Source: Saccostrea echinata (Eukaryota). Taken from it: a stretch of 64,000 bases of DNA. The notes under the pieces were generated by a model that was given only the letters and a program-made list of their open reading frames with translations, did no database searches and was not told where the DNA came from. Below, piece after piece: positions 44,343 through 61,019 of the stretch (positions are counted from its first letter, which is position 1; every line of letters starts with the position of its first letter). The position numbers and the translations under genes were made by a program. The stretch lies in the NCBI RefSeq assembly GCF_033153115.1, contig NW_026889782.1, positions 26,908,001-26,972,000 on the forward strand, read 5' to 3'.

Positions 44343-44686
44343 AGTAGTATAAAGGGGTTTTTTTCGTACCTAGTTTATACGCCCTGTTTTGGCGATACGC
44401 CCTGTTTTCGCTATACGCCTGGTTCTATAAAAGGATATGAGGAATATTGGTTTTCCGATAAACGAAACAGCGGGCAGTCTTTTGTGACCCTGGTTTTGCA
44501 ATAAAAGGATATGAGGAATATTGGTTTTCCAATAAACAAAACAACAGGCAGTCTTTTATGACCCTGATTTCGCTATACGCCCTGTTTTCACGATACGCCT
44601 TTTTTTAACAAGGGTGTATAGGAAAACTTAGTCTTATACGATATGGGTTTTTTTTTCTCCCCTATACTAGAGAGAAACTTAACACC
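44343..44686 (+). repeat. Left TIR of the Polinton
   Basis: Inverse match to 60551-61019; internal ATACGCCCTGTTTT motifs. Confidence 0.92.
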
Positions 44687-45374
44687 CGATTTTATTCGCT
44701 AAGAATTCTCACACCTCTTACCTTATGTGTTCTATATCTTTATTTTGTTAGAGATAGGGGAAAATGTTTAAAATTATTAGTTCGCCAGGCATAAGGCGAG
44801 AAAAACGATAAACTAATGTAAAAATAATATATATATATGGTTATTATTTCTATTAAAATTATTCAATACTAATGTAATTTGGTAAAGATTTTTTTTTTCT
44901 GTTAGTCGAATTTATCGGACCTGTAAGGAACTCTTTAATATGAGAAGGTAAAATTTTGGAATCGTCTGCTGTGTATGTACGGTATTTTGTAAGGTTATTG
45001 TTCCCCCTGCATGGAAAGTAAGCGACAAACACTCAACTCTTAGGGTGTCTTAAAAGGTGTGAAGATTTATGCTATAATCTACACGATTTTTTTTCTGTTA
45101 TTACCAACTCGATTTCACGTCCTGTTATGAGGACAAAAGAGGGTATATTATGTATAGATAACCTACTGACTCGATATTGACAAGGTGGTCTCGATCACTT
45201 TTTGTTACTTTACAATCAACATTAATTCCGAGATGCCCTGCTGAGCTAACGAAACTAATTACTTATCACTTTGCATTATAAACGCTCCTACAATGATTTT
45301 CATCAAAGAGATTCTCAAGGTCTCAGCAAATATTAAAGAGGTTTCGTTTAGACTTGGTTCATTTCATCATCAAA

Positions 45375-46049
45375 ATGGACTGGACAGAGAACATTGATAT
45401 AGATCCTCCAAGGGATGTACTAGAAAAAATTGATAGACTGGAAAGAGCCTACATAGCCAAAGAGGTAAATATTTTTCTTTGTATTATTAAATGTGTCTTG
45501 ATACGAATAATAGATTTACATCAAGAAGATTTTCTTACATATAATCAAAAAAGAAAACGCTAAAATAAAAAAAAAAAAAATCACGCAGTTATTTAGTTTG
45601 ACGATTTTTATCTTAACAAAAATTAAAAGGAAACTGATAGGAAACGGTCAAAAAAAATATCGACTGTTGAGTTTTGGTTCGATAAAACGACATCGATATT
45701 TATTATCGTTTATATTTAAGAGTTGTTTTTACGTGTGATTAATACATTATGGTACTTTTTTTTAAAAAATAACTATGATATTCCTTTATGAAATTTAATC
45801 GGTTTTACATCTAATCATTTTCATAACCGAGTTTAAAAAAATCGTTTAATAATGAGAAAAAAATTTAAGCATCGAAATTTCTTTCTTAGAAATTCAAACA
45901 AAATAGACGAAATGGGGAAGAAAAGAAAGAAGCATCTGAAGTATATATTTTGTTTATATATTTGTTATAGGTATACAAATAAATTAAACAAAAGTTTTGA
46001 ATCGATATTACATGTATAAATATATATATATTTTTTCAATGTTTATATT

Positions 46050-46080
<31 letters not shown>

Positions 46081-46791
46081 AATGACCGAGTTAAAAAGCA
46101 TCGTCTAAAATGGAGAGAAAAAATAAAATTGAAATTCCTTTCTTAGAAATTCAAAGAAAATACTGGAAATGGAGGGGAAAAGAAAGAAGATTCTGAGGTA
46201 TATTTTGTCCGATGTGTAGAAATAATTAAACAAAATGACAAAGAAAAAAAATCTGATAAAACGATTAATTTTTATCATTGTTAATATTTAACAGTTAATT
46301 TTATTGTGTAATTCATACTTTATAGTACATTTTTTTAAAGACCTATGATATACCTTTATGAAATTTAGTCAATTTTCATCTATGTATTTTAATGATCGAG
46401 TTATTAAAGAATTTATAAAATCGAGAGAAAAAAAAATTTAGCATTGAAATTTGTTTCCTAGAATATCGAAGAAAAAAGACCAATACAGAATAAGGACGAA
46501 TCTGAGGTACATTTTGTCTGAATACATTTAATATATGCAACTGTTCACCCAATTTAATCGTGCAATTATTTTATCCTTATACTTACTGTAGAACGAAGAA
46601 AGACGGGTGGGCTTTTTCATGGTTTCATCTAAAAAGAAAAGTCCTGTACGTACCTTTGTCTGGTTGATTACAAGAATTTGTGTATCTATTTTAATCGAGC
46701 AACAAAATCATGCATTTTTTTTTTATTTATTTAGGGAAAAGGAAAGAAATTAACAAAGAAAGACGAGTAGGGCAAAGCGAAGCAAAGTAAG
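45375..46791 (+). CDS. Putative spliced micro-exon gene or pPolB 5' exons (45375-45464, 45890-45940, 46147-46197, 46462-46506, 46592-46645, 46735-); highly charged product
   Basis: Purine-rich blocks bounded by YAG/GT; first four are phase 0 and stop-free; the 3' join is unresolved. Confidence 0.55.
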
Positions 46792-46992
46792 GTATACATG
46801 TATATATATTTACACGTCATCTGAAACATTCCGTTATAGATGAAATTCTTAATCCCTTGTTATAATTTTTTTTTTTTTTTTACGCAGACTCGGAAACCTT
46901 CTCACAAGGTCAAACCTCTGAATTATATAATAATCGATTAAGTTTAGGGTAGTGGGCAGAGTTCTAGAGACAGACCATCGACCTCCTATGAC

Positions 46993-49900
46993 ATGACCTC
47001 AGACGAAACATCACAGAGTTCATTAGACAGACCCTCAACCTCCTATGACACGACCTCTGACCAGGATGAAACATCATCCGACAATGACAGTCAAACGGAC
47101 GATGACCCTGCGTTACAATTCCTACTGAAAAAGTACGAGAGACTCATAAACAGACCCCACCAAGAAGGTGTAATTCAAAAAGAATACAATTTTGCTGCGC
47201 ACAATTTTAATCTTTCTTATGACGATCTCGAAAAACAATTGAACGACATATACCAAACTGAAAAGCATGCCTTTAAAATCAACTTTTCTCTCGGAATTGT
47301 GTTGAGAAACACGGAAGGCGAACTGCGATATTTTTATGCTTCTGGAAATGACTCCTTGTTAAACGAACCTTATCAGATATCAAATAAGAAAGACTTAGAT
47401 AATTTAATCTTGATTTTAAGGAACAAAGATCTTTTGCAGATAGCGTTACAGTCGCGCCCGAACTCAAAATGGAGCGTTTATGTCGTCACAAACATTAGAT
47501 CGGTGGTCGTCAGAACGAATTATATTTTAGGGGCGGGTCGTAAGCTACCGGACTATGTCAAAAATAAAAAGTGCATTATCGCACTGAACACCAACAGCGT
47601 CGATGGTAGTTTAATTGAAGACAATTTATGTGCTTTCCGATGCTTGGCTTACCACCGAACACAAAATAGGAAAGGTCTAGAAAGACTTACTTTGAAATAT
47701 TACAGAGAATTTTTTGGCCATAGGGTAACCAAACGTACCAAATTTAATGGGCTCACCCTTGAGGACATTCCTCATTTCGAAAACAATTTTGATATCAATG
47801 TCAATATATTTCAATTGTTCGAGGACCAAACCTGCGTCCACATTTATCGTTCACGTGGAGTGTTTCAAGACACGATGAACTTAAACCTATTCGAAGACCA
47901 TCTCAGCTACATAAAAAATCTAGATGTGTATTGTAAGAAGTACGAGTGTCGAAATTGTAAAACTCTTTTCCCCACACAAGGTAAAGTCACCCGCCATGAA
48001 AAACGCTGCAAAGAGGCTACTAGGTTCATATATCCAGGGGGTTACTATGCCCGACCGCGACATATTTTTGAAGAACTCGAATATTTAGACAGTAAAGTAG
48101 ACAATGACTTGCGGTTTTATCCTTTTTTCATTACATATGATTTTGAAGCGATTCTTCAAACAGATGATCTACCCCCCGCGACACAAAAATCTACTTGGGC
48201 TCAAGAGCATCGACCCGTATCATTTTCGATATGCTCCAATGTTCCGGGACATGTAGATCCCGTTTGTCAAATGGATTCGGACGTCAATAGCTTAATTCAA
48301 AAGTTTGTACTTGCCGCAAGTAAAATACAGTCTACAGCTCAGAAGTACATGCGAGCCCGTTTTGCAAATGTTTTGAAAAAGCTTTCCCTCGAATCTAAAA
48401 AATTACAAGAACTTTCTGAAGAAATCTTACATAGAGACGATGACAGTGATGACGAGGATGACGATGACGACGAGAGACAAGCCATAAACACGCCCCTTTT
48501 ATGTCACATTAAACGAATACAGGCCAAACTCGACACTTACATCAATGAGATACCGGTCTTAGGGTACAATAGTTCCAAGTACGATTTGAATTTAATAAAA
48601 ACCAAATTTGCGGAATGTTTGAAACTACCTCAAAGTAAGAAAAATTTTGTTGTTAAAAAGTGCAATCAGTACATGTGTATTAGTAATGGCCAATTCAAAT
48701 TTCTAGATATCAGTAATTTTGTAGCACCAGGGTTTTCCTACGACATGTTCATCAAATCCTACGAAATAGAGTTGCATAAATCGTTTTTTCCTTACGAGTT
48801 TCTCACGTCGTTTGATAACCTGGAGCATACGCAGCTTCCACCCTACGAAGCTTTTTACTCTTCCCTTAAAAACTGTAATGTGCTAAACGAAGAACACGCG
48901 CGATTTCGTCGCTTAGTCGTCGACGAACAACACCCCGTTGCCGTCGCATTGAAAAAAATGAATCTAAAGAAACCGCCTCCTACCGGACCGGAGAATTACG
49001 AAAAACTTCGCGCTTTATGGGAGGAACGCGGCATGCGCACTCTCAAAGATTATCTCGAATATTACAATAATCTGGACGTACTTCCCTTCTGTCAGGCGGT
49101 GTCAAAGATGCTCCGTTTTTACACATCGCGGAATATTGATCTATTTAAGACATGCCTCAGCGCGCCCGGGGTAGCAAGGGAAATCATTTTTCAATCTGCC
49201 GCCGGAAAAGGACATTTCGCGTGCTTTGATGCCCAAAATAAAGACTTGTATAGTATCTTTGGGAAGGGAATGTGTGGTGGTCCCGCCATCATTTTTCATC
49301 GCTACCACGAGAGGTATAAAACATTCATTCGGAAAAATGTCAACCAAATTTGTAAGAAAATCGTAGGGTACGATGCTAATGCCTTGTATTTATGGGCACT
49401 CAGTCAAGACATGCCCACCGGTCCTTTTACTATTAGAAAAGAAGAAAACAATTTTCAGCTAGTCAAACGAGATCGCTATTTAAAAGCTTTGTATTTCTTA
49501 GAATGGTTAAGACACAGTCGAGGTGTCAATATTGATCATTACTTTAACGCGGGCAAAGAGTTCCGTATTGGTCCGTATCGAGTAGACGGTTATTCTAGAG
49601 CAGAGAAAAAAGTATACGAATTTAACGGTTGCTACTTTCATCGACACAAATGCGCTCTGACTGCTCACATTCAGGACCCTAAATGGTTAAAGGATCAAAA
49701 AAAAGTTCAGAAACGCGAGCAAGAGCGAACAGAATACATTAAAAACCAAGGCTATGACATAGAAATCACCTGGGAATGCCAATACGAGAATTGGTTAAAA
49801 ACGTCCCCCGAATTTAAAAGATTTATTGAAGAGCAACGCCGAAAGCGCCCTCTAGAACACCGAACGACATTAACCAAGTCTGAAATCTTAACCGCCATTC

Positions 49901-51075
49901 GCGAGAAAAAAATATTCGGCGCCGCAGAAGTCGATATACACGTCCCCGATCATCTTTTAGACAAATTTCAAGAAATGTCCCCCATTTTTTGCAATGCCGA
50001 AATTCCATTTGAAGCTCTCGGACCATATTCTCAGGAAACGGCACAAAAATTAAATTTGGGAGAAAAACCGCGACGGTTATTAGTCGGAGGTATGCGCGCG
50101 CGTAAAATTCTACTGGCTACCCCTCTCTTAAAGTGGTATTTAGAACACGGTCTTATCGTTTCGCGCATATATCAAGTTATAGAATTCACCCCTAGCCCCT
50201 GTTTTTCCGATTTTACGAGCGAAGTTAGCAATGCTCGTCGTCGCGGTGATAGTGATCCGCGTTTTGAAATATTCGCGGATACCATGAAACTCATTGGAAA
50301 CAGCGCGTACGGATCAATGATCATGAATAAAGAAAAACACACGGAAATTACTTATTGTGCGACGAAAGAAAAAGCAGGATGTTTTGCCTCTAAAAAACGG
50401 TTCCGAACATTGACCGAACTCAATAATAATCATTTCGAAATCGAGCTTGCTAAATCGCGCATAAACTTGGATTTACCAATACAAATAGGATATTTCGTGC
50501 TTCAATATGCCAAGCTGCGTATGCTCGAGTTCTATTATGACTGCGTCGATAAATTTTGTAGCCGTCAAGATTTCGAATTGATGTCCATGGACACAGACTC
50601 TCTATATATGGCCATATCAGCTGAAAAGTTTGAGGACATAATTAAACCCGACATGAAACCCCTTTTCAAACGGGAAAAAAATCAATGGTTTCCTCGCACA
50701 GAACCTGTTGAGGCGGCATCCTTTGATCGTCGCGAACCTGGTTTGTTTAAGGAAGAGTTTGTAGGGACGGGCATGGTAGCCCTTTGCAGCAAAACCTATT
50801 GCGTGGAAAATAATCTAGAACTTAAAAAGAGTAAATTCAGTTGTAAAGGTTTAAATAAAAACAATTTCAGCCACCCTCTGTCTTTATATAAACGTGTATT
50901 GTTCGATAATACCACGGCCGGTGAGACGAATCGCGGTTTCCGCGCCCGAAATAACACGATCTTTACTTACACTCAACGACGACAGGGACTGACTTCTTTT
51001 TATCCTAAGCGCAAGGTCTTGTCTGACGGAGTGTCGACAACCTATCTTGAAATGGAACTGTGCCCATGGGACTAG
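46993..51075 (+). CDS. pPolB: Protein-primed family B DNA polymerase with N-terminal TP/vOTU-like region, Zn finger and internal VSR-like nuclease
   Basis: Exo motifs YDFE, YNSSKYD, YNNLDV; pol motifs YDANALY, KLIGNSAYG, MDTDS; DNLC..H; CRNC..H...C; YRVDGY..YEFNGCYFH. Confidence 0.97.
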   Translation: MTSDETSQSSLDRPSTSYDTTSDQDETSSDNDSQTDDDPALQFLLKKYERLINRPHQEGVIQKEYNFAAHNFNLSYDDLEKQLNDIYQTEKHAFKINFSLGIVLRNTEGELRYFYASGNDSLLNEPYQISNKKDLDNLILILRNKDLLQIALQSRPNSKWSVYVVTNIRSVVVRTNYILGAGRKLPDYVKNKKCIIALNTNSVDGSLIEDNLCAFRCLAYHRTQNRKGLERLTLKYYREFFGHRVTKRTKFNGLTLEDIPHFENNFDINVNIFQLFEDQTCVHIYRSRGVFQDTMNLNLFEDHLSYIKNLDVYCKKYECRNCKTLFPTQGKVTRHEKRCKEATRFIYPGGYYARPRHIFEELEYLDSKVDNDLRFYPFFITYDFEAILQTDDLPPATQKSTWAQEHRPVSFSICSNVPGHVDPVCQMDSDVNSLIQKFVLAASKIQSTAQKYMRARFANVLKKLSLESKKLQELSEEILHRDDDSDDEDDDDDERQAINTPLLCHIKRIQAKLDTYINEIPVLGYNSSKYDLNLIKTKFAECLKLPQSKKNFVVKKCNQYMCISNGQFKFLDISNFVAPGFSYDMFIKSYEIELHKSFFPYEFLTSFDNLEHTQLPPYEAFYSSLKNCNVLNEEHARFRRLVVDEQHPVAVALKKMNLKKPPPTGPENYEKLRALWEERGMRTLKDYLEYYNNLDVLPFCQAVSKMLRFYTSRNIDLFKTCLSAPGVAREIIFQSAAGKGHFACFDAQNKDLYSIFGKGMCGGPAIIFHRYHERYKTFIRKNVNQICKKIVGYDANALYLWALSQDMPTGPFTIRKEENNFQLVKRDRYLKALYFLEWLRHSRGVNIDHYFNAGKEFRIGPYRVDGYSRAEKKVYEFNGCYFHRHKCALTAHIQDPKWLKDQKKVQKREQERTEYIKNQGYDIEITWECQYENWLKTSPEFKRFIEEQRRKRPLEHRTTLTKSEILTAIREKKIFGAAEVDIHVPDHLLDKFQEMSPIFCNAEIPFEALGPYSQETAQKLNLGEKPRRLLVGGMRARKILLATPLLKWYLEHGLIVSRIYQVIEFTPSPCFSDFTSEVSNARRRGDSDPRFEIFADTMKLIGNSAYGSMIMNKEKHTEITYCATKEKAGCFASKKRFRTLTELNNNHFEIELAKSRINLDLPIQIGYFVLQYAKLRMLEFYYDCVDKFCSRQDFELMSMDTDSLYMAISAEKFEDIIKPDMKPLFKREKNQWFPRTEPVEAASFDRREPGLFKEEFVGTGMVALCSKTYCVENNLELKKSKFSCKGLNKNNFSHPLSLYKRVLFDNTTAGETNRGFRARNNTIFTYTQRRQGLTSFYPKRKVLSDGVSTTYLEMELCPWD

Positions 51076-51384
51076 TCCATTGTTTGTGTATATACCCCCT
51101 TTGTTTTAGTCCATAGAATAGCCCTCCGGATGAGTCCATTTTTAGGGGAAGGGGAACTAACTTTTATGTTAATTTGTTATGTCCCTATATTTTGACTAAA
51201 ATTTTATAAATTTGTAAATTAAAGACAATGATAACAAAGATAGTATTCATTGTAAATAAATAAAAACTGAATATATTTTTTTCCGTTTATATATAAAAGA
51301 AAGGTTATAACCCTGCCTCCTCCTCACCCCTTCTTTTTCCCATCACCCTTAGTTTTTTAGGTTTCTTGTGTTTTATTGAGGAGG

Positions 51385-52297
51385 ATGGCGACGTTAATGA
51401 TTCTGCTTAGTTTAGTGTTTGTGGTACAGGGAGATTTTTCGAAATCTTGCCTATCTAAGGGAAAAGTTCTCCTCTGTGAGAAGGTTGAGGGTAATCTAAC
51501 ATGTCAGAATGCCGGAGTCAAACTGCTGAATGCTGAGAGACTTGTAATGACAAATCCCAAGATTGAGAAAGTGGACATCACCAGCCAGTGCCTCCCCAAG
51601 CTGCGGACAGTTGAAATCGTGAGATCGGGGATGATGAATTGTTCTGACTTTGCAACGTTCTCACTGGTCATCATCAACAGGAGAGTTTGTGTATACACAG
51701 TAAGTTCATTTTTTTTTTCGATGTAATTATTGTATATTTCTGTATTTATTTTTATTATTATATTTTGTAAAACTCATATTAATAAGACATAATATTTCAT
51801 GTAGACATCCAGCACACCACGGATCGTCTCAGGAAAACCTCCAGCAGACTCGAAGAGCTCGTCGTCAACAACTGCAGTGACTCCGTACAATGTGACGGTC
51901 ACCATGGTGACAGAGACCACTACTGTGGAGAACGCGACCCTGCAGTCAACACTGCATTTCTTCCCAAGAGACAGCGACAAAACAAAAGAAGGTACTTACT
52001 TAAAATTCTATTTATGATGGCATGCATAATTACATGCATATGATTATTACGTTTTTTTAAAAAAAAATAATAATAATAATATTTTTACATGTAGATGTGG
52101 CGTTACGGGCAGTCGTCATTACTCTCAGTATTTTATCCGTATTACTGATCATCCTGGTGTTTGTCCTGTTGAAGTGGAAACGTTGTAGACGTAGTCGAGG
52201 AAGAAAACTGCCGATGGCTGAGGATCTGGGGAGTTCTGAAGTGGTGTTCCTGCGTTCAGCAAGCAGGAATCCGTACTCCGAAACAAAGTTTGAGTGA
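51385..52297 (+). CDS. Three-exon type I membrane glycoprotein, 234 aa (exons 51385-51699, 51805-51991, 52095-52297)
   Basis: GT-AG introns, phases 0 and 1, splice in frame; signal peptide, 6-Cys domain, S/T stalk, TM helix, basic tail; TATATAAAA at ~51290. Confidence 0.85.
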
Positions 52298-52750
52298 CTT
52301 GACATTTTGACTCTCTCTCATTCTGTACAGTGATTTTATTTTTTTTTTTTCCTAATTGTATGCTATTTTTGATGATAAAGCGTTATGTGCTATATGTAAA
52401 ACAAGATAGTTATTTTTCTTTTTTTTTTTTTGTAGCGTATTTTAATATTGAAGTGATTTTTCTGTTTGGTATTTTTTTTTCTTTAAAACATTTGCTTTTT
52501 AACTTATATGGAGAATCTTAGCGATTACCTTTTATATATTTTTTTTCAAAACAATATTTGCTGTTTTATTTAAAAAAAAAAATGTTATTAACATTTAATC
52601 GATAACAACAAATTATCAGAGTTATTTTGCGCAATCCAATAATTGTGTACATAAAAATAAACCTGCTTTTTAGTGTGGCATATTTTCCATTTGAATAATT
52701 AAAACACACAAGTTTTCTGACTTTCTTTTATTACTGTTGTTATATTACAA

Positions 52751-52933
52751 TCACAAGGACATCCATTTGCTGGGAATTTTCACGCCTGGTGGGGCATCCT
52801 TTCTTCCAGCGACACCTAGTCTTTTTGTCAGTGGTTTTTCCGGAGATTTCTGTGTCGTTTTTGTACTCACAGCGGGTACTGCTTTCAGTCGCTGGTACTC
52901 ATCTTTAGGTATTAACACGAACTCAGTGGACAT
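52751..52933 (-). CDS. Small Polinton protein
   Basis: MSTEFVLIPKDEYQRL start, overlaps the stop of the upstream gene in the minus-strand block. Confidence 0.55.
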   Translation of the reverse strand: MSTEFVLIPKDEYQRLKAVPAVSTKTTQKSPEKPLTKRLGVAGRKDAPPGVKIPSKWMSL

Positions 52934-53243
52934 ATTTTGCAAGGTCTGGAAGCAAAGGTTTTAGTAAGACAGGAAGAAATCCGTGGCGTCGGAGTAACAG
53001 ATTCTTTTTGTTTCTGCCCTTCTTCTTAGCTAATCGACGCAGAATATGTCGATACTTGTAGAGATTTTTGATGAAGGATTCGGAGGGTAAAATCTCACGA
53101 TTATGAATAACGTTATAAATCACTTCTAAGAGAGTCTTTAACTGCTTGACACTGATCGTCTTTAATAACACTCGGCGTTGTCTGACGCTTGTAGTGGCTA
53201 GCTAGTTTAAAAAGGCCCAGTTCTGACGAAGGCGGTCGCTCAT
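52923..53243 (-). pseudogene. Basic Polinton protein with in-frame TAG at 53204-53202
   Basis: ATG overlaps the ATPase stop (ATGA); MSDRLRQNWAFLN*LATTS..QLKTLLEVIYNV. Confidence 0.7.
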
Positions 53244-53908
53244 GTTTTTCTCATGTAAACGATCAATAGGTCACCTGGAAATATCCCTGTGCGCAGCGCA
53301 TAATCTCTGCGTCCGCTCACGGATAGGTCCACCAATAAATAAGAATAAGGTTTTTGCGTCGCCTTTTCATATGCGTCGAGAAAATACGACTTGTTTTGCG
53401 GATAGAGTTGGGTAGCTAAGAATTGAACTTGAAAATTATCTCGGGGGTTTTTGAAAAGAACGAGGTATTGACAATTTAATGAAATGACTCGACTGTACTT
53501 GCCTTGAGGAAACAAATTTTGAGAAATAAATATGACAGATATATTCATATGATGCACGTGAATAGTAAATAACTCCATATAATCAAAGGACTGAATGACT
53601 CGGTATACTAGATCATCCAAAACGAGTAAGAATTCCCCGCTCTGCGCAAATTCCTCCAGGTCTTGTTTTGAGGGTAAACCCTCGTAAAATATAACAGATG
53701 AATTGTGGTCCCGTATTTCTTGAAAAGCCGGTTGCCATTTTGAATACGCATACACAATCTTTTTAAGCGGTTTTGATAGAATCCCTTTGTCAAGATTATC
53801 TAAGATTCGTTGCGTAAATCGAGTTTTGCCACTCTGACTGGGACCACTCACAAACAAAGAGAAAGGCACCTTCAAAGCAAAATCACTGGGGTTCATGGTT
53901 TCATTCAT
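53240..53908 (-). CDS. A32/FtsK-like genome packaging ATPase
   Basis: Walker A GPSQSGKT, Walker B LLVLDD, FISQNLF, SLNCQYLVLFKNPRD. Confidence 0.95.
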   Translation of the reverse strand: MNETMNPSDFALKVPFSLFVSGPSQSGKTRFTQRILDNLDKGILSKPLKKIVYAYSKWQPAFQEIRDHNSSVIFYEGLPSKQDLEEFAQSGEFLLVLDDLVYRVIQSFDYMELFTIHVHHMNISVIFISQNLFPQGKYSRVISLNCQYLVLFKNPRDNFQVQFLATQLYPQNKSYFLDAYEKATQKPYSYLLVDLSVSGRRDYALRTGIFPGDLLIVYMRKT

Positions 53909-53955
53909 TTATTTCTTTTTTAATCTCAACATTTGACTTATATACAGACACAAAG

Positions 53956-54198
53956 ATGAATCACGACTCAATGTGGGGTATAAGAGAAAATGTGGATGTC
54001 AACTGGAAAGGAAAACGAAAAATCAGATGTCATATTGACACGTCTCATTTTGTAACTGTGTCTAGGAGAAAAAATCGGTATTACGTTAAAATCAGGAAAG
54101 GGAAGCGAGATCTTTCCTTATCGCCTGAGATGTGGGCTGTGATATGCGATCTAAAAGAAACGGTGTTACTGTGTTGTAATTTTTTGGAAACTAGTTAA
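53956..54198 (+). CDS. Small PC4-like protein
   Basis: FVTV....YVKIR....LSLSPEMW resembles PC4 YVSV....IDIR...ISLNPEQW. Confidence 0.6.
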   Translation: MNHDSMWGIRENVDVNWKGKRKIRCHIDTSHFVTVSRRKNRYYVKIRKGKRDLSLSPEMWAVICDLKETVLLCCNFLETS

Positions 54199-54200
54199 AA

Positions 54201-55331
54201 ATGGTTTTATCCGCGGAACTACGAGACTATTTAACTTCATTGTATTTCAACCCCGAAAAACCGGGAGCATTCAGAAGTCCGCTTCAGTTATGGCGACAAG
54301 AAAATCAGTATAAGATCGGGCTACCCAGAATTAAGCAATGGTTACAAAATCAAGATGTCTATTCAATGAACAGAACCGTACGTCGTCGTTTTAAGAGACC
54401 ACGGGTTTTCACGGGTGGAATAAAAGATCAGTATGACGCCGACTTAATGGATGTCGGATTTCACTCCAAAGAAAACGATGGAATCAAGTATTTATTGGTT
54501 GTGATCGACGTGTTTACTCGTTATGTGTGGGTATGCGCACTGAAAAATAAAACGAGCTCCAATGTATTAAAAGGTCTCAAAAATTGTTTTCAAAACTTGG
54601 GTTTTCCTCGCAAAATAAGAACAGATGCCGGAAAGGAATTCACGGCACATCTCGTTCAAAATTATTTAAAATCAGTCGAGGTTACACACTTTACTACTCA
54701 AGGAGAATCGAAGAGCAACTTTGTGGAACGCGTAATCAGAACACTGCGCAGTTTAATGCACAGATATATGAAAAAGACGCGTTCGTTTAGATATATTGAT
54801 AAACTACAGACATTGGTAACGAATTACAACCACACCCCTCATAGATCGTTGGGTTATAAAGCACCGAGTGAAATTAATGAGACTAATGAAGTCGATCAAA
54901 TTATTTTGCAATATTTTAAACCTCCTGTCAAGCGGAAAATAAAGAAAGTATCAAAACTGGCCAAGAAATTGCGATCGTCTTTTCGATTTAAGGTGGGTGA
55001 TACTGTGCGCATATCGCATTTGAAACATGTGTTTGAAGGCGAATTCATGGAGAAATTTACTGGCGAAGTGTTTAAGATAAAATCCCGATTTTTGAAACAA
55101 AATATCCCAATGTACAAGCTACAGGATTTAAGAAACGAAGATCTGACGGGTAGTTTTTATGAACAAGAACTACAGAAAATAGAAAAACCGGAAGACACAT
55201 TGTGGGAAGTGGAAAAAATATTGCGTAAAAGACGTCGAAATAATCAGACTTATGTTCTTATTAAGTGGTTGAATTTCCCTCGAAGTTTTAATAGTTGGGT
55301 GCCAGAGAGAGAAGTACAAGAGCTGGTTTAA
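54201..55331 (+). CDS. INT: Retroviral-like (rve) integrase with C-terminal chromodomain
   Basis: ADLMD, IDVFTR, TDAGKEF, VERVIRTL; WEVEKIL...VLIKW......NSWVP. Confidence 0.97.
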   Translation: MVLSAELRDYLTSLYFNPEKPGAFRSPLQLWRQENQYKIGLPRIKQWLQNQDVYSMNRTVRRRFKRPRVFTGGIKDQYDADLMDVGFHSKENDGIKYLLVVIDVFTRYVWVCALKNKTSSNVLKGLKNCFQNLGFPRKIRTDAGKEFTAHLVQNYLKSVEVTHFTTQGESKSNFVERVIRTLRSLMHRYMKKTRSFRYIDKLQTLVTNYNHTPHRSLGYKAPSEINETNEVDQIILQYFKPPVKRKIKKVSKLAKKLRSSFRFKVGDTVRISHLKHVFEGEFMEKFTGEVFKIKSRFLKQNIPMYKLQDLRNEDLTGSFYEQELQKIEKPEDTLWEVEKILRKRRRNNQTYVLIKWLNFPRSFNSWVPEREVQELV

Positions 55332-55335
55332 AGAA

Positions 55336-55728
55336 ATGGATTATTACATGGTCATTTCAGAGACAGACTTTTTAAATTATTATCCAAATAATACGCCTAA
55401 TGATTTCCGCGTTCACACGCCGAACACTAGGTTAAGGGGTCGGTGGTACGTGGGGCTCTGCGAAATGAGTATTGAAGTAGAACGGGAATGTGAAATATTA
55501 ATACTGTCGGATATCTGTTCAGATACACTGGTAGGGGGTGAGAAGAAACCTTTATTAAAGAGAATGAGGTTACAGAGTGGACAAAATGACGTCGCGTTCC
55601 AGCGCATCATGTATATTCCTATCGTCGTGACCGATTTTCATTCCATCAGAGTATATCTGGAGAGCCCAGTACTAACAAAACCAAAGGTGACTTTTGTGCT
55701 TCATTTTAAAAAATATCCTTTCATTTAA
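55336..55728 (+). CDS. PX: Minor capsid protein (penton, single jelly-roll), minimal form
   Basis: YPNNTPNDF ... WYVGLCE ... SDI....VG....PLL ... YIP ... VLHF. Confidence 0.85.
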   Translation: MDYYMVISETDFLNYYPNNTPNDFRVHTPNTRLRGRWYVGLCEMSIEVERECEILILSDICSDTLVGGEKKPLLKRMRLQSGQNDVAFQRIMYIPIVVTDFHSIRVYLESPVLTKPKVTFVLHFKKYPFI

Positions 55729-55730
55729 GC

Positions 55731-56057
55731 ATGCGCTCTTCGAAAGTGTATGTGGCAGACACGAAGAAATGGACAGATTTTTTTGTTAGTACGGCCGCTA
55801 CGCCCATTTCACATAATTCGTTACGACAGAGTGGGGGGAACTTGGGAAACGGCAGCATTAATACCACTGCCATAGTACCCATTGATTCCGGTCGCAACTT
55901 GCGAGGTGGGGGGGAAAGTCCCTCACCGGAAATCACCCTCGTCTCGCCCACACAACGAGATTTACAACAAGCCAAGTCAGAATTGCGTCGCGTAAAGCCT
56001 AAAAAGAGGAAAAGGACGTGTAAAAAAGCTAAACATTCCGATAATTTTGATTATTAA
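55731..56057 (+). CDS. Small basic protein, candidate core protein or protease substrate
   Basis: QSGG and LRGG motifs, LVSP, K/R-rich C-terminus; tightly packed in the structural block. Confidence 0.6.
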   Translation: MRSSKVYVADTKKWTDFFVSTAATPISHNSLRQSGGNLGNGSINTTAIVPIDSGRNLRGGGESPSPEITLVSPTQRDLQQAKSELRRVKPKKRKRTCKKAKHSDNFDY

Positions 56058-56058
56058 G

Positions 56059-56502
56059 ATGGAACCCGAAAGAGATGTCGCGTCGGATCTCATGATTAGA
56101 AAGAAACAATACGCAAGAGCCGTCAAAGTCACCGGAGTGTTGTTACTGCTGATACCGTTTTTCATTGTATTTGGAATGACGATAGACATTTGGAATAACA
56201 CACAGGCCTCTCCCCTGACCGTTAACGATACCAGAGCTTTTAACGCGACTCTCTGCGATTTTTTAAAATCGTTTCCTTTGACTGAGGCGGTGCATGTTAG
56301 CGTCTGCGTTTATCAGGGCTCCGTTCTAATTGATTTGAGACGTTTTTTGAATAATAAACCAACGATTAAAGGAATACAATTAAACCCCATTCAATGGCAG
56401 TACCTGAAAAGAATTTGGCCTTACATCGATCAGAGCTTAGTGCTGGCATCGAGACGCGATTTCTCTGCGCATAAAAGGGCAGAGAAGACTTCTCACAGTT
56501 AA
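56059..56502 (+). CDS. Membrane-anchored PC4-domain protein (147 aa)
   Basis: Basic N-terminus, TM VTGVLLLLIPFFIVFGMTI, sequons NNT/NDT/NAT, then VSV..YQGSVLIDLRRF...PTIKGIQLNPIQW..LK.....ID. Confidence 0.85.
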   Translation: MEPERDVASDLMIRKKQYARAVKVTGVLLLLIPFFIVFGMTIDIWNNTQASPLTVNDTRAFNATLCDFLKSFPLTEAVHVSVCVYQGSVLIDLRRFLNNKPTIKGIQLNPIQWQYLKRIWPYIDQSLVLASRRDFSAHKRAEKTSHS

Positions 56503-56510
56503 GATCCAAA

Positions 56511-57821
56511 ATGACGAGTCACGCATACGAAGACATTCAGGAAGGATTGCCCAGGGAACTACTGTTGTTTAATTTACCAGTGACGCAGACAGCTGTGACT
56601 CGTAACTATTACGTAGATTATAGACCCGTTTCTCAGATAAGCGAAAACGGACCCGTAGAATTCAGCGTACCCGGGACAGGAGATTATCTGGACTTTAAAA
56701 AAAGTTTGTTATATGTTAAAGCGCGAATCCTCAAAGCGAATGGTTCAGCTCTTGAGGCGGACGAGAAAGTCGGTCCTGTGAATAATTCTTTGCACAGTTT
56801 CTTTAATCAGGTGGACATTTCGTTAAACGGGAAACAGTTCCCGAGTAGTGGCGGGGCGGCCTATGCTTATAAAGCTTACCTACAGAATTTGTTAAATTAC
56901 GGAGAAGAGGCAAAACAATCCCAGCTTCAATGTAGCTTGTTTTTCAAGGATGATGCTGGTTATATGGATGTCGCGGACCCTAACGGTGCTAATTCCGGGT
57001 TGTACTCGCGCACCGTTTTCTGTTAAGAAAGTTCGTCTTTTGATTTAGAAGGGCCCATTTTAGAAGATGTGTGTCGACTCGATCGTTTTGTGTTAAACGG
57101 AGTAGACGTTAACATCAAATTGTATAGACAAAACTCGTCGTTCTGTCTCATGTCCGCCGAGGCGGATCCGCAGTACAAAATTGTCTTTGATGACGTCATA
57201 TTCCGGGTTTGCAGAGTACAGGTGTCGCCAGGTATCATAGTGGGGCACACAAAGGCTTTAGAAACGACTACAGCTAAATATCCCTTGATTAACACAGACG
57301 TAAAAGTGGCCTCTATTGCTGCAGGGCAAACCCGATTCATCTGGGATAACATTTATTTGACCCGCTGTCCCAGTAAAATCGTTCTCGGACTGGTCTCTAC
57401 GGAGGCCCAGACAGGGAGTTATGTGAAAAACCCTTTTAATTTTCAAACCTTTGGCGCTCGTCATGTCGGCGTATTTGTCAATAATGTGAGTGTTCCCGGG
57501 CAGCCTTATAAAATAGAAGAAAACTGTTACATCTCAGCTTACCACAGTTTATTTGATATTGTCGACAAATCCCAAATCGATTCCGGAAACAATATTGATC
57601 GAGACGATTGGAAGTATGGCTACTGCCTTTACGGCTCTTCGTTACAACCCCAGTTTGGAAACACAGATACCCTTTCTTTAATGAATCAAGCAAGCGTTCG
57701 ACTAGAACTAGCCTTCGAGCAGGCACTGACAGAAACCGTTTCCTGCATCCTGTATGCTGAATTCCCCTCTTTTTTTGAGATAGACAATACTAGAAATGTA
57801 ATTCTTAACTCTATATCATGA
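56511..57821 (+). pseudogene. PY: Major capsid protein (double jelly-roll, 436 codons) with a single in-frame TAA at 57024-57026
   Basis: LLLF..P.TQ, GPVEF, PVNN.LHS.F.QVD, YAYKAYLQNLLNY, NGVDV.IKL, GSY.KNPFNF; ORFs 56511 and 57069 share a frame. Confidence 0.93.
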
Positions 57822-58279
57822 ACGGATACCTCATTTCTGACCTATGTCGTTTAGATTTAGTTTTAGCTTCCCAGTTTGAGGGTGTATTTTCTCCGGATAA
57901 TTTACCTTTGAATGTTGACCACTATCCCCGTGCTTATATCGTTAACACTACATTTTCTACTACAGCCGGAGAACACTGGATAGCACTCTATTTTAGTTCT
58001 TCTCAACACTGTTACGTATTTGATAGTTATGGTAGGGACCTGAGTAGTTTGCCGTCTCAGATACACTCCTTTGCTGCTCGCAATTCATTTTCATGTACAT
58101 ATAATACGCTTATAATGCAAGACGTAGCTAGTCAAACGTGTGGACTGTATTGTATATTATTCATGCTAGTAATGAGTAGAATCTGTAATCTATCTGTATT
58201 TCAACGACTCTTTTGTGATGACTTGATCCAAAACGATGTTTTTGTGTACCGCATTCTTTATACATTATACAATCTTTGA
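57818..58279 (+). CDS. PRO: Adenain-like cysteine maturation protease
   Basis: GEHW, FDSYG, Q.....TCGLYC catalytic motifs; ATGA overlap with MCP stop. Confidence 0.95.
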   Translation: MNGYLISDLCRLDLVLASQFEGVFSPDNLPLNVDHYPRAYIVNTTFSTTAGEHWIALYFSSSQHCYVFDSYGRDLSSLPSQIHSFAARNSFSCTYNTLIMQDVASQTCGLYCILFMLVMSRICNLSVFQRLFCDDLIQNDVFVYRILYTLYNL

Positions 58280-58490
58280 GCTTTATCTCTCCTTCTATAT
58301 AGTACAATAAACTGATAACACCTTTGTGACAGATTTTATTTAATGATAAGAAAAAAAAATATATTGAGTGACAGATTTTATTTAATGATGAGGAAAAAAT
58401 ATACATAGTACAATAATTCTCAGAGTCTCTTTACATAAAACGCCACTGTTATATACACAGTAAAAAGTATAGTCCAACAGAAAAAAAAAA

Positions 58491-59192
58491 TCACTCAGAT
58501 AATTTAGACAGTTCAGATTGAAAGGCCTGGTCCTCCCTAGCATCGCGCAGGTATTTCTCCCCGTCCGATTCATCCCCATTGATTTCCTCGAACTCCCTCA
58601 CAATGACATCTTCCGGAATATTGTTCATACAATCTTGAAGGTACATGTCCCTCTTTTCCTCCCACGAAGATAGGCAGCCCATTTCCATGTGCTGTTTCTG
58701 GCTGGGATGATCCGTCAGGCATCCGTGGCAACGTTCCTTAGATTTACACGAAACCATCTTCCTCAGGATTTTCGTGATGATGGATTTCATGCACTGATCC
58801 ATCTGCTCGACTTCTTGATATGTCTCTTGGAATTTTCCCCATTCATTTTCGTTGAGTGCGATGCCAAATTTAGTAGGAAGGGCTGGATCTACGTGGAAAT
58901 TAAACACTCTAAAGTCCACGATGATAACGTTGCTGTCGGGGAATCTCTTCGCCGTTACCCGCTTGTTTCCCTCCTCGTTTCTCTGTAAGTCCCAAGTCTT
59001 AGACGGCGTTGAAGAGTTTTCTCTCAGTTTCTTTACATGCGCGTGAATTTCACTGATAATGTTTATCAGCAGCAACCACTCGGAGGCGGAGAAGGATATT
59101 TTCTTTTCCGGTTGGTCCACATTGTTCAGTCTTATTCTCTTCTCTTTCTGGTAGATGCCAGTCGTGAAAGTGATTCGCTCACTCAGGAACAT
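58491..59192 (-). CDS. Tandem PC4-like domain protein with C-terminal Cys/His motif
   Basis: KISFSASEW and IVDFRVF.....PTKFGIALNENEW PC4-like repeats; CHGC..DHPSQKQH...GC; first ATG at 59192. Confidence 0.8.
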   Translation of the reverse strand: MFLSERITFTTGIYQKEKRIRLNNVDQPEKKISFSASEWLLLINIISEIHAHVKKLRENSSTPSKTWDLQRNEEGNKRVTAKRFPDSNVIIVDFRVFNFHVDPALPTKFGIALNENEWGKFQETYQEVEQMDQCMKSIITKILRKMVSCKSKERCHGCLTDHPSQKQHMEMGCLSSWEEKRDMYLQDCMNNIPEDVIVREFEEINGDESDGEKYLRDAREDQAFQSELSKLSE

Positions 59193-59204
59193 GATTAATG
59201 TCGT

Positions 59205-59236
59205 ACTGAAAATGACTAGTGTGAAGGTTTTAAATA
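59205..59236 (-). promoter_or_regulatory. Putative TATA + Inr core promoter
   Basis: TATTTAAAA (59236) lies 29 nt upstream of the A in TCAGT (59207), just before ATG 59192. Confidence 0.45.
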
Positions 59237-59285
59237 ATATCCAGGCTGTGATGTCATCGGTCAAAAGGTGTTAAACTATATGATG

Positions 59286-59723
59286 TCATCTATATCCAAT
59301 CACAGTCCAGCTTAATTCCTGGCGGTGACGTCGGCGCATTTTTCTAACAGCTATGTCCATTCTTTTAAAGAAATGTTCCGGAGTGAAAAATCGTTCCTCG
59401 TCGAAATATTCTGAGAATATTTCTCGAAAGCATTCAATGATATTACATCCCATATGGCATGTAGAGGTCTCGTGCCAGGGCAAATCCAGGTCCTCGACTG
59501 TTTGTCCTCGGTCTATCCAGACTCTGCAATTGATGGCCTCTTGTGTAATCATTAAATTACGCGCGATTCTCGATAGCAATTGTGGTCTTTCAAATTGTCT
59601 AGATTTTTTGATGTAATAATATACATCTTCGTAAATCTGCTTCTCTCTGTCAAACAAACTTAACTCCAGTGAGAAACTAGCTAGATCTCGCAAAGGAAGA
59701 ACTTCGGTAAACATACGATACAT
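59286..59723 (-). CDS. Polinton hypothetical protein (145 aa)
   Basis: ATG-initiated ORF with the composition of the neighbouring viral genes; no recognised motif. Confidence 0.6.
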   Translation of the reverse strand: MYRMFTEVLPLRDLASFSLELSLFDREKQIYEDVYYYIKKSRQFERPQLLSRIARNLMITQEAINCRVWIDRGQTVEDLDLPWHETSTCHMGCNIIECFREIFSEYFDEERFFTPEHFFKRMDIAVRKMRRRHRQELSWTVIGYR

Positions 59724-60550
59724 GATCAGTAATATTTGTGTTGGTTTGCATCTGTTTCTTTTATTCAGATTCGCCCTTATTGATTAGTTTTCCGATTTCC
59801 CACAATATTCTAAAAGAAGAAATTCCATAATAATAGAAAAAGTCTTTTATGTCTTACAAGTCGTTAATATAACGCATACTTGGGACCGTTGCTCGTAACA
59901 ATAATTTTTTTCTCACCTTCCGTTGATGACCACATTTAATTACCTGTTTTAACCCATAGGGGGTCAAGTACATTTTCTTATCTTTTGATATAAAATACTT
60001 TTGTTATATAACGGTATTCACGATTATTGATTCATTCCACGATTTCTCAAAGGGAAAGAGATTCCATAATAAAAGAGTTGTTAATGTAATGTCTAGTTGA
60101 AAAGTTATTCGGAACAATAACTTTTTCTCACCTTCTTATGGTCGTTGCTTGTCTACTCAGATTTAATTAACTGACTTTACCTAGTATGAGATGTCAAATC
60201 TTCTTCTCTTCATTGCATTGTACTTTCCTACAATTTCTTACGAGTTCTGATCAAAATCGGTGACAGTTACTTTCTCTTTGGAGGGTTAACTGCATTTCAC
60301 CTAACGGTTTGAAATTTTCTGTAGCAATGGGTAATAATTGATTGTGAACATCATTTTTATTACGAAGTATGTAGATACTTTTAATAATCACATTCTGCTG
60401 TTTTCCTTTATGAAATCATTCTAAAATCAAATGTATATCTTTGAACGTTTAGAAATTTTTACTGAAATTAAGTGCTTCGTTTAATCCTGGTTCAACTGTG
60501 TATTTCATTCTATTCAGTTTAATTATACTACAAGTTTCTATTGTAAACAA

Positions 60551-61019
60551 GGTGTTAAGAATTGCTCGACTAGTATAGTGAGGAAAAAAATGTATAAGAT
60601 TCCGAAAACACCATCTCATAGTGAAAACAGGGCGTATAGCAAAACCAGGGTCCCGAAAGACTGCATGCTGTTTTCTTTATTAGAAAACTAATATTCAACA
60701 TTAAGTTTCCTTATACATCCTTGTTAAAAATAAGGCGTATCGTGAAAACAGGGCGTATAGCAAAACCAGGGTCCCGAAAGACTGCATGATGTTTTCTTTA
60801 TTAGAAAACTAATATTCAACATTAAGTTTCCTTATACATCCTTGTTAAAAATAAGGCGTATCGTGAAAACAGGGCGTATAGCAAAACCAGGGTCATAAAA
60901 GACTGCCCGCTGTTTCGTTTATCGGAAAACCAATATTCCTCATATCCTTTTATAGAACCAGGCGTATAGCGAAAACAGGGCGTATAAACCAGGTACGAAA
61001 AAAACCCCTTTATACTACT
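60551..61019 (-). repeat. Right TIR of the Polinton, including 121-bp tandem repeats
   Basis: Inverse match to the left end; units start at 60621, 60742, 60863. Confidence 0.92.

Follow-up and report, generated by a model that had tools for sequence, protein, structure and literature searches.

A predicted luminal, membrane-anchored PC4 protein and a soluble tandem PC4 protein in a Polinton of Saccostrea echinata

We analysed a 64,000-nucleotide stretch of the Saccostrea echinata genome (assembly GCF_033153115.1, contig NW_026889782.1, positions 26,908,001 to 26,972,000, forward strand), hereafter the window, whose positions are counted from its first letter. It contains a Polinton (Maverick) element which carries, among other genes, one for a 147-amino-acid (aa) protein in which a PC4 domain follows a transmembrane (TM) helix, here called TM-PC4, and one for a 233-aa protein with two PC4 repeats, here called the tandem PC4 protein. 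On the reading that we favour, and hold to be reasonably probable, the PC4 fold is used in two places: in a soluble tandem protein that would bind single-stranded DNA (ssDNA), and in a luminal or extracellular dimer, glycosylated and locked by disulfides, that would bind a ligand of the host surface and not viral DNA.

Fold and topology of TM-PC4

The PC4 fold of TM-PC4 is confirmed by sequence comparison: the protein matches the Pfam PC4 family (PF02229) at 32.4 bits (cut-off 25), and a profile built from 17 relatives matches human PC4 chains at E 1e-9. From its N-terminus, the protein consists of a basic tail, a single hydrophobic helix (residues 24-42), a stalk with N-glycosylation motifs (sequons) at N46, N56 and N62, the cysteines Cys66 and Cys83, and the PC4 domain at about residues 70-130. 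One uncleaved anchor, a positive N side, and sequons and cysteines on the C side are the features by which we read it as a type II membrane protein. A cleaved signal peptide was considered and rejected, as the helix of the relatives described below begins 0-65 residues into the protein, and past residue 20 in most of them.

At E <= 0.001, the profile of 17 own-genome members retrieved 1110 library proteins, and we analysed the best 150. These comprise 105 proteins with a helix before the domain (19-residue hydropathy >= 1.8; median core identity 35%), 18 soluble multi-repeat proteins (71 repeats) and 27 single-domain proteins without a helix above the threshold, 26 of which still have the cysteines. 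Lysine and arginine are richer N-terminal of the helix in 84 of the 95 helix-bearing relatives that could be scored (5 equal, 6 reversed). Sequons are present on the C side in 102 of the 105 relatives and number 208 there (147 NxT and 61 NxS), against 89 +/- 8 expected (500 shuffles, maximum 113) and 74 in a reverse-order control; the N side holds 21 in total. The excess concerns the stalk (130 against 40) and the inside of the domain (75 against 50), with 67 sequons placed 21 residues before Cys83 and 29 beside the position of human PC4 W89. No excess is seen in the soluble multi-repeat proteins (23 against 30 +/- 5). Cys83 is found in all 105 relatives, preceded by an upstream cysteine at 15-18 residues in 103 of them (exactly 17 in 97), and a cysteine occupies the same column in just one of the 71 soluble repeats. 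The 17 own-genome members, collected by single-sequence search, all have a basic N side, a C-side sequon and both cysteines; their sequons number 29 for 11.5 expected, a count reached in none of 2000 shuffles.

According to the positive-inside rule, and because N-glycosylation and disulfide formation occur on the luminal side, the N-side charge, the C-side sequons and the Cys pair predict a luminal or extracellular PC4 domain. Some features of our samples weigh against this prediction. The 17 own-genome members were hand-picked as full-length and distinct; L030 and L044, two loci outside this set, have a serine at the Cys83 position; and the profile that selected the 150 library proteins itself favours sequences with the helix and the cysteines. 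We consider that the domain very probably faces the lumen or the cell exterior.

Predicted dimer and former DNA face

A homodimer model of TM-PC4 scores 0.73, against 0.01 for the best of three controls, with runs agreeing in at least 93% of contacts and a predicted local distance difference test (pLDDT) of at least 83. Of 30 solved pairs, 21 reach the mark used to call a dimer, as against none of 23 single chains. In eukaryotes it was reached by 17 of 29 pairs, but by just one of the seven without a solved relative, so that the score obtained here may reflect memory of PC4 itself. With this proviso, TM-PC4 is predicted to be a homodimer of single repeats (type II PC4-like fold). Residues 78, 80, 82 and 84 point toward the partner in the model. 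The listed interface contains neither residue 83 nor residue 66, as would be expected if the two formed an intrachain bond on the open face, although this does not show such a bond. In five relatives (P0050, P0072, P0124, P0136 and P0143) the helix is followed by two PC4 repeats, both Cys-bearing, which amounts to a tethered version of the dimer in one chain.

We transferred the ssDNA contacts of PC4, named in the available part of PMC4350104 as R70, F77, R86, W89, R100 and K101, to TM-PC4 through a profile alignment to human PC4. Several of them are lost. The W89 position, whose aromatic residue is required for ssDNA binding by PC4 according to the same part of that source, is isoleucine, valine or leucine in 80 of the 105 relatives and tyrosine or phenylalanine in just six, whereas 62 of the 71 soluble repeats have a tyrosine there. 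R70 and R100 are mostly replaced by hydrophobic residues (isoleucine at R100 in 73 of 105), Cys83 occupies the R75 position on the DNA face, and several own-genome families have a sequon at the F77 turn. K101 is kept in 67 of the 71 soluble repeats. The window protein has V, Y, R, L, I and K at the six contact positions and thus lacks the W89 aromatic, R70 and R100. With its domain predicted to lie outside the cytoplasm, it is likely that TM-PC4 no longer handles viral DNA. Counting against this, R86 is kept in 97 of the 105 relatives, K101 is lysine or arginine in 51 and F77 is tyrosine in 41. All three are retained in the window protein, so that TM-PC4 may still have some affinity for nucleic acids or other polyanions.

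These kept residues, together with D84 (93 of 105), G102 (96 of 105) and the predicted dimer, are what favours an alternative in which luminal TM-PC4 still binds nucleic acid, capturing extracellular or endosomal DNA or RNA and so hiding it from host sensors or aiding genome uptake. The near absence of an aromatic residue at the W89 position, the hydrophobic residues at R70 and R100 and the sequons at the F77 turn argue against such a trap, which we regard as quite unlikely.

In the mechanism that we prefer, the helix would act as a signal anchor, leaving the N-terminal tail in the cytosol and the C-terminus in the lumen. Cys66 would bond Cys83 at the R75 position of the former DNA face, and this bond would bring the N-terminal segment and nearby glycans over that face. 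The dimer would be preserved because the fold depends on the helix swap, and it would serve as an ectodomain that binds a ligand, either on the cell surface or within the secretory pathway. There is perhaps an even chance that, in either place in infected cells, it binds a host protein or a polyanion such as a glycan during entry, release or immune evasion, alongside the spliced glycoprotein described below.

The tandem PC4 protein

Pfam recognises only the second repeat of the 233-aa protein, and below its cut-off (21.9 bits). The AlphaFold model (mean pLDDT 85.4) contains two strand-strand-strand(-strand)-helix repeats, at about residues 1-58 and 63-132, followed by helices; its best fold matches in the PDB are Whirly, PURA and MoSub1, none of them at E <= 0.001. 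HHalign comparison with the canonical tandem PC4 proteins of Polintons pairs repeat 1 with repeat 1 (probability 89.9) and repeat 2 with repeat 2 (94.7). Model and alignments together support a tandem PC4 fold. In a quick, unrooted and short tree (102 rows of 65 columns), the second repeat of the 233-aa type falls with canonical repeat 2 (Shimodaira-Hasegawa-like approximate likelihood ratio test, SH-aLRT, 85), repeat 1 is placed weakly beside part of canonical repeat 1 (73), and 25 TM-PC4 sequences form one group (86). The protein is likely a divergent, fast-evolving ortholog of the common Polinton tandem PC4.

The initial annotation had noticed a CxxC..HPSQ..H..C motif in this protein; it is present, in the helical C-terminal domain. 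A Tctex-1 identity for this tail was rejected, as Pfam gives 20.2 bits, under the cut-off. The same domain exists as a stand-alone gene of 116-119 aa between TM-PC4 and the integrase gene at four loci (L043:5256-5606, L050:5313-5672, L053:4478-4837 and L045:4335-4691), with 17 matches in the genome and no Pfam family. The HPSQ motif resembles a reordered version of the canonical C..HQNQ..CxxC motif.

The tandem PC4 gene is common in the Polintons of this genome and is not lineage-specific: a canonical query has at least 150 scored matches (best 150 of 218 candidates). Canonical tandems usually lie near the integrase gene and finish with a C..H(Q/M/L)NQ..CxxC motif; those of some families also have an N-terminal CARD. 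Such fusions of CARD, tandem PC4 and Cys/His motif occur at L057:5909-6826, L060:5740-6723 and L071:4798-5784 (Pfam CARD above cut-off), and raise the possibility that a viral ssDNA binder is connected with signalling in cell death or immunity.

A replicon that is protein-primed and strand-displacing needs a single-strand-binding protein (SSB), as in phi29, tectiviruses and adenovirus. The initial annotation had proposed a replication SSB or transactivator among the PC4 paralogues. The tandem PC4 is the candidate SSB, and the canonical proteins fit this role in that they keep the DNA-binding residues: in 15 canonical tandems counted by hand, R86 is present in all 30 repeats, two basic residues stand at positions 100-101 in 28 of 30, F77 is aromatic (F or W) in 11 of 15 first repeats and W89 is kept in 13 of 15 second repeats. 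For the window protein, repeat 2 keeps the R70, F77, R86 and R100 positions and repeat 1 is eroded. Against an SSB role, the protein is acidic (isoelectric point, pI, 5.7), repeat 1 lacks R86 and repeat 2 has a phenylalanine at K101. DNA binding is accordingly less sure for this protein than for canonical tandems, and we consider it somewhat more probably an SSB than not. Folded as a one-chain pseudo-dimer, with the HPSQ domain in place of the usual C-terminal Cys/His motif, it would coat the single strands displaced during replication.

Alternatively, the tandem PC4 could be mainly a transcription coactivator or repair factor, like cellular PC4/Sub1, and not a replication SSB. Its domains are sequence relatives of PC4/Sub1, the CARD fusions suggest a regulatory role, and a large distant family has no tandem in the 20 kb checked (L075 and L076). 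However, wide retention near the integrase gene and the kept DNA-binding residues fit a part in replication, and a phage T5 homolog of PC4 is tied to recombination-dependent replication by the title of its PDB entry. This alternative is rather unlikely in our view.

The 80-aa protein and the spliced glycoprotein

Of the three PC4-fold genes originally proposed, those for the 147-aa protein (Pfam, profile) and for both repeats of the 233-aa protein (model, HHalign) stand, and the third, for an 80-aa basic protein (pI 9.6), is probable only, with weak scores. It matches PC4 at E 0.21 in Pfam, at E 0.048 with a local profile built without the 80-aa family and with an HHalign probability of 58.9. 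All three of its matches at E <= 10 in a PDB sequence search are PC4 (E 0.66-1.1), and Foldseek, run with a model of pLDDT 66, gives MoSub1 in each of its top five rows (E 0.47-0.84). VIA-align returned no PC4 among the 50 matches listed, the best (Z 5.1) being to a polo box, and the protein was unplaced in the quick tree. We think that it probably has a PC4 fold. Its 14 genome matches are all at least 65% identical and were seen in this lineage only, where the protein was probably added as a shortened basic PC4 repeat.

Two further membrane proteins had also been proposed. One is indeed a membrane glycoprotein, predicted as type I and encoded by a three-exon gene that reaches 52297; the other is the 147-aa PC4 protein itself, counted twice. 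The exons of the glycoprotein gene are at 51385-51699 (signal peptide and Cys-rich domain), 51805-51991 (Ser/Thr stalk) and 52095-52297 (helix and conserved tail). Contigs from three of four sequencing runs show intron 51700-51804 spliced with GT..AG borders, and intron 2 is bridged in two of the four; the runs come from one study and are presumed to be RNA. The exons are kept in related elements, and the gene has 17 matches in the genome, in this lineage only. A 113-aa open reading frame (ORF) at 51385-51726 was rejected as a whole secreted protein, as it is exon 1 read on into the intron. One contig of run X2 covers 50815-52719 and so takes in the last part of the polymerase gene together with the glycoprotein gene, although a contig is not proof of a single transcript. 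The contigs of the four runs leave TM-PC4 and the capsid block uncovered, which carries no weight either way.

Co-occurrence and spread of the PC4-type genes

The PC4-type genes of the element are real and under purifying selection. Relative to the related family L027, the 80-aa gene has a ratio of nonsynonymous to synonymous substitution rates (dN/dS) of 0.06, the 233-aa gene one of 0.09 and TM-PC4 one of 0.15, with 0.19 for the 145-aa gene, 0.07 for the integrase and 0.23 for the protease genes.

The co-occurrence expected by the initial annotation holds in that the three PC4-type genes are found together in eight elements of this genome, and fails as an obligate linkage. The gene at 56511-57821 is one that we take, from its position, size and gene order, to encode the major capsid protein. 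Around 149 places where it has a match, a search within 12 kb finds the tandem and the 147-aa type at 45, the tandem only at 49, the 147-aa type only at 11 and neither at 44, all these counts being lower bounds. The comparison used the best 150 of 384 capsid rows (two merged), 162 tandem places (split hits merged) and 86 rows of the 147-aa type, partly checked for the helix. Of the 44 places with neither gene, 32 are the weakest-scoring capsid rows, apparently one distant family.

These distributions bear on the idea, put forward in the initial annotation, of a membrane-associated DNA-handling module. The three PC4 proteins and the glycoprotein would then act together as one unit, in which TM-PC4, its N-terminal tail in the lumen, would hold viral ssDNA at the cytosolic or nuclear face of a membrane. 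All four genes do co-occur in this lineage, the TM-PC4 gene of other families is often found immediately upstream of the tandem gene, and R86 is widely kept, with tyrosine at F77 and lysine at K101 in the window copy. Nevertheless, the genes also occur apart and in shifting positions, and the 80-aa gene and the glycoprotein have been found in this lineage only, TM-PC4 in many families. The basic N side, and an excess of sequons and a Cys pair that are restricted to the PC4 side, would place the tethered PC4 domain in the lumen, apart from the DNA and from the two soluble proteins. We find the single module very improbable.

Another possibility is that TM-PC4 is a virion protein, in a particle that has a lipid membrane or leaves the cell wrapped, the PC4 dimer acting as a spike or attachment protein. 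Its gene lies here between the 108-aa and capsid genes, and after the protease gene in other families; it is kept across families whose capsid proteins are 30-45% identical to that of the window, and a second, spliced glycoprotein is present. Yet many related elements have no TM-PC4 match (the 49 places with the tandem only and the 44 with neither), which suggests that it is not needed for every capsid, and in several families the gene lies away from the capsid block. We doubt strongly that TM-PC4 is part of the virion.

The Polinton context of TM-PC4, another point to be held against our interpretation, comes from this genome only, where core genes lie within 5 kb at 31 of the 39 places examined. 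No relative of the locus was found among viral and metagenome contigs. Cluster records of 20 TM-PC4 proteins gave no useful name, and the ESM Atlas had no usable match for the window protein, with P0092 giving leads at 0.83-0.85. In the literature, outside subscription papers, Repbase notes and bioRxiv supplements, we found no account of PC4 domains in Polintons or of a membrane-anchored PC4. The sole paper found with both Polinton and PC4 (PMC11662393) uses PC4, in its available part, as a cluster label, and the words 'membrane' and 'disulfide' occur nowhere in the accessible part of a PC4 review (PMC7549692). The soluble tandem gene thus appears to have been labelled once already without being discussed, and the membrane form appears undescribed.

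The Polinton element and its setting

The element spans 44343-61019 (16,677 bp), has ends AGTAGT...ACTACT and is flanked on both sides by a perfect 6-bp target duplication, TGCGTA. Two sister copies have identical ends and different target duplications. Its terminal inverted repeats, 6-bp duplication and size agree with the Polinton hallmarks given in the available part of 10.1101/2023.08.22.554363 (terminal inverted repeats, 5-8 bp target duplication, 13-25 kb). The ORFs initially annotated at 53956-54198 (80 aa), 56059-56502 (147 aa), 59192-58491 (233 aa), 59723-59286 (145 aa) and from 51385 onward are all present. In their order along the element, the features are:

44343..61019, +, Polinton element (terminal repeats, target duplication, sister copies)
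46993..51075, +, polymerase, 1360 aa, with a VSR-like nuclease insertion at residues 870-938 (ORF, motifs by eye)
51385..52297, +, spliced, predicted type I membrane glycoprotein, three exons (run contigs, exon conservation)
53240..53908, -, A32-like packaging ATPase (Pfam Pox_A32, 26.8 bits, above cut-off)
53956..54198, +, 80-aa basic protein, probable shortened single PC4 repeat (weak profile and fold matches)
54201..55331, +, rve integrase with chromodomain (Pfam rve 55.6 bits, Chromo 33.4 bits)
55336..56057, +, conserved 130-aa and 108-aa genes of the integrase-to-capsid interval (relatives in the same order in other families)
56059..56502, +, 147-aa TM-PC4, predicted type II membrane glycoprotein and homodimer (Pfam PC4, profiles, sequence features)
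56511..57821, +, gene read as major capsid protein, with one in-frame stop in this copy (position, size)
57818..58279, +, adenovirus-like cysteine protease (Pfam Peptidase_C5, 33.9 bits)
58491..59192, -, 233-aa tandem PC4 with HPSQ domain, candidate SSB (fold model, HHalign, tree)
59286..59723, -, conserved 145-aa gene, no family found (conservation, dN/dS 0.19)

The integrase, packaging ATPase and cysteine protease are all above their Pfam cut-offs. The 1360-aa polymerase, in which B-family motifs were spotted by eye, is presumably a protein-primed PolB, and we assume from its position that the 130-aa gene encodes a minor capsid protein. Polintons are also marked by a protein-primed PolB and jelly-roll capsid proteins; here, Pfam, PHROGs and PDB sequence searches named no family for the polymerase and capsid genes; the latter has at least 150 scored matches across the genome (best 150 of 384 candidates). 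The element had tentatively been assigned to a mollusc polintovirus lineage, and the VSR-like stretch of its polymerase is consistent with this without proving it, as VSR-bearing pPolB2 is reported for molluscs and one marine nematode in the available part of Jeong et al. (10.1101/2023.08.22.554363).

The 145-aa gene lies directly upstream of the tandem PC4 gene in related elements too, and one contig of run X1 covers it with most of the 233-aa gene; inspection by eye shows no hydrophobic helix in its product. Downstream of the ATPase gene, at 52751-53243 on the minus strand, related copies have two small genes, one of 106 aa, whose frame is broken in the window copy, and one of about 60 aa. 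The terminal repeats (44343-44635 and 60618-61019) contain a unit of about 121 bp, with more copies at the right end than at the left.

Across the genome, most Polinton matches are concentrated on a few contigs (C5, C6, C33 and C36), some of only 11-19 Mb. A mirror-image Polinton, in which tandem PC4, integrase, part of the capsid gene, protease and ATPase recur in inverted order on the other side of a centre, occurs at L065 and L066 (G000:C14:18698001-18718000), and also at L067 and L068; similar inverted pairs of tandem-PC4 matches occur on C30, C32, C34 and C63. Two loci are of another kind: L064 has a zf-PARP-like plus PC4 domain (3677-4456) with a second PC4 stretch 0.8 kb on (5265-5531) and no Polinton gene in 10 kb, and is probably a host gene, and L063 contains an intron-split SUB1-like gene.

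Comparison with known systems

The element shares its size, terminal repeats, 6-bp duplication, core genes and VSR-like polymerase insertion with the Polintons that bear VSR-containing pPolB2, as described in the available part of 10.1101/2023.08.22.554363, a text in which PC4 is absent and no membrane PC4 gene is described. The nearest viral counterpart of the 233-aa protein is MOSUB of a Branchiostoma lancelet adintovirus (A0A5H3CIS2, 203 aa), its top viral fold match (E 3.7e-4, 158 columns, root-mean-square deviation 3.0), which is likewise a PC4-like gene in a Polinton-type virus. The two proteins are only 14% identical, and the window protein ends in the HPSQ domain, unlike canonical tandems with their C..H(Q/M/L)NQ..CxxC motif. 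Starrett et al. 2021 (PMC8502044) give the MOSUB label at least once, in their Supplementary Fig S2, and neither Sub1 nor coactivator occurs in the available main text.

With the type I PC4-like domains (Whirly and Pur-alpha; available part of PMC7549692), the 233-aa protein shares two repeats per chain, and these are its top PDB folds. Identity is only 8-16%, however, and its repeats are nearer to PC4/Sub1 in sequence, so that it is more likely to have arisen when a PC4 gene was duplicated than to derive from Whirly or Pur. TM-PC4 resembles the C-terminal domain of PC4/Sub1 (PF02229; human PC4 1PCF, MoSub1 4BHM) in its strand-helix fold, its predicted helix-swapped homodimer and the retained residues D84, R86, G102 and helix Trp. 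Unlike PC4/Sub1, it has a predicted signal anchor, sequons in the stalk and an invariant pair of cysteines, while W89, R70, R75 and R100 are mostly lost.

The broadest proposal, that a clade of invertebrate Polintons turned a nuclear ssDNA-binding fold into a dimeric attachment or membrane-coat glycoprotein while keeping a tandem copy as the Polinton SSB, which no paper that we found names, is a bold one that we think unlikely as it stands; if true, host membranes would serve these never-isolated viruses for exit from cells or entry into them. The TM-PC4 family, with at least 100 clusters at 50% identity, appears to have moved the fold into the secretory lumen, with a predicted disulfide and glycans on the former DNA face, and would be a clear case of a fold switching both compartment and job. 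For Polintons, known almost only from sequence, a candidate for a conserved surface protein and one for the replication SSB are thus at hand, both of them small single proteins that can be tested without the virus. By analogy of its predicted role, TM-PC4 recalls the dimeric type II glycoproteins of the poxvirus A33 type and the adenovirus E3 glycoproteins, which display a borrowed cellular fold on a membrane. Compared with these, the fold that TM-PC4 would have borrowed is an intracellular, nucleic-acid-binding one, and PC4-like domains are reviewed, in the available part of PMC7549692, as intracellular or capsid nucleic-acid binders.

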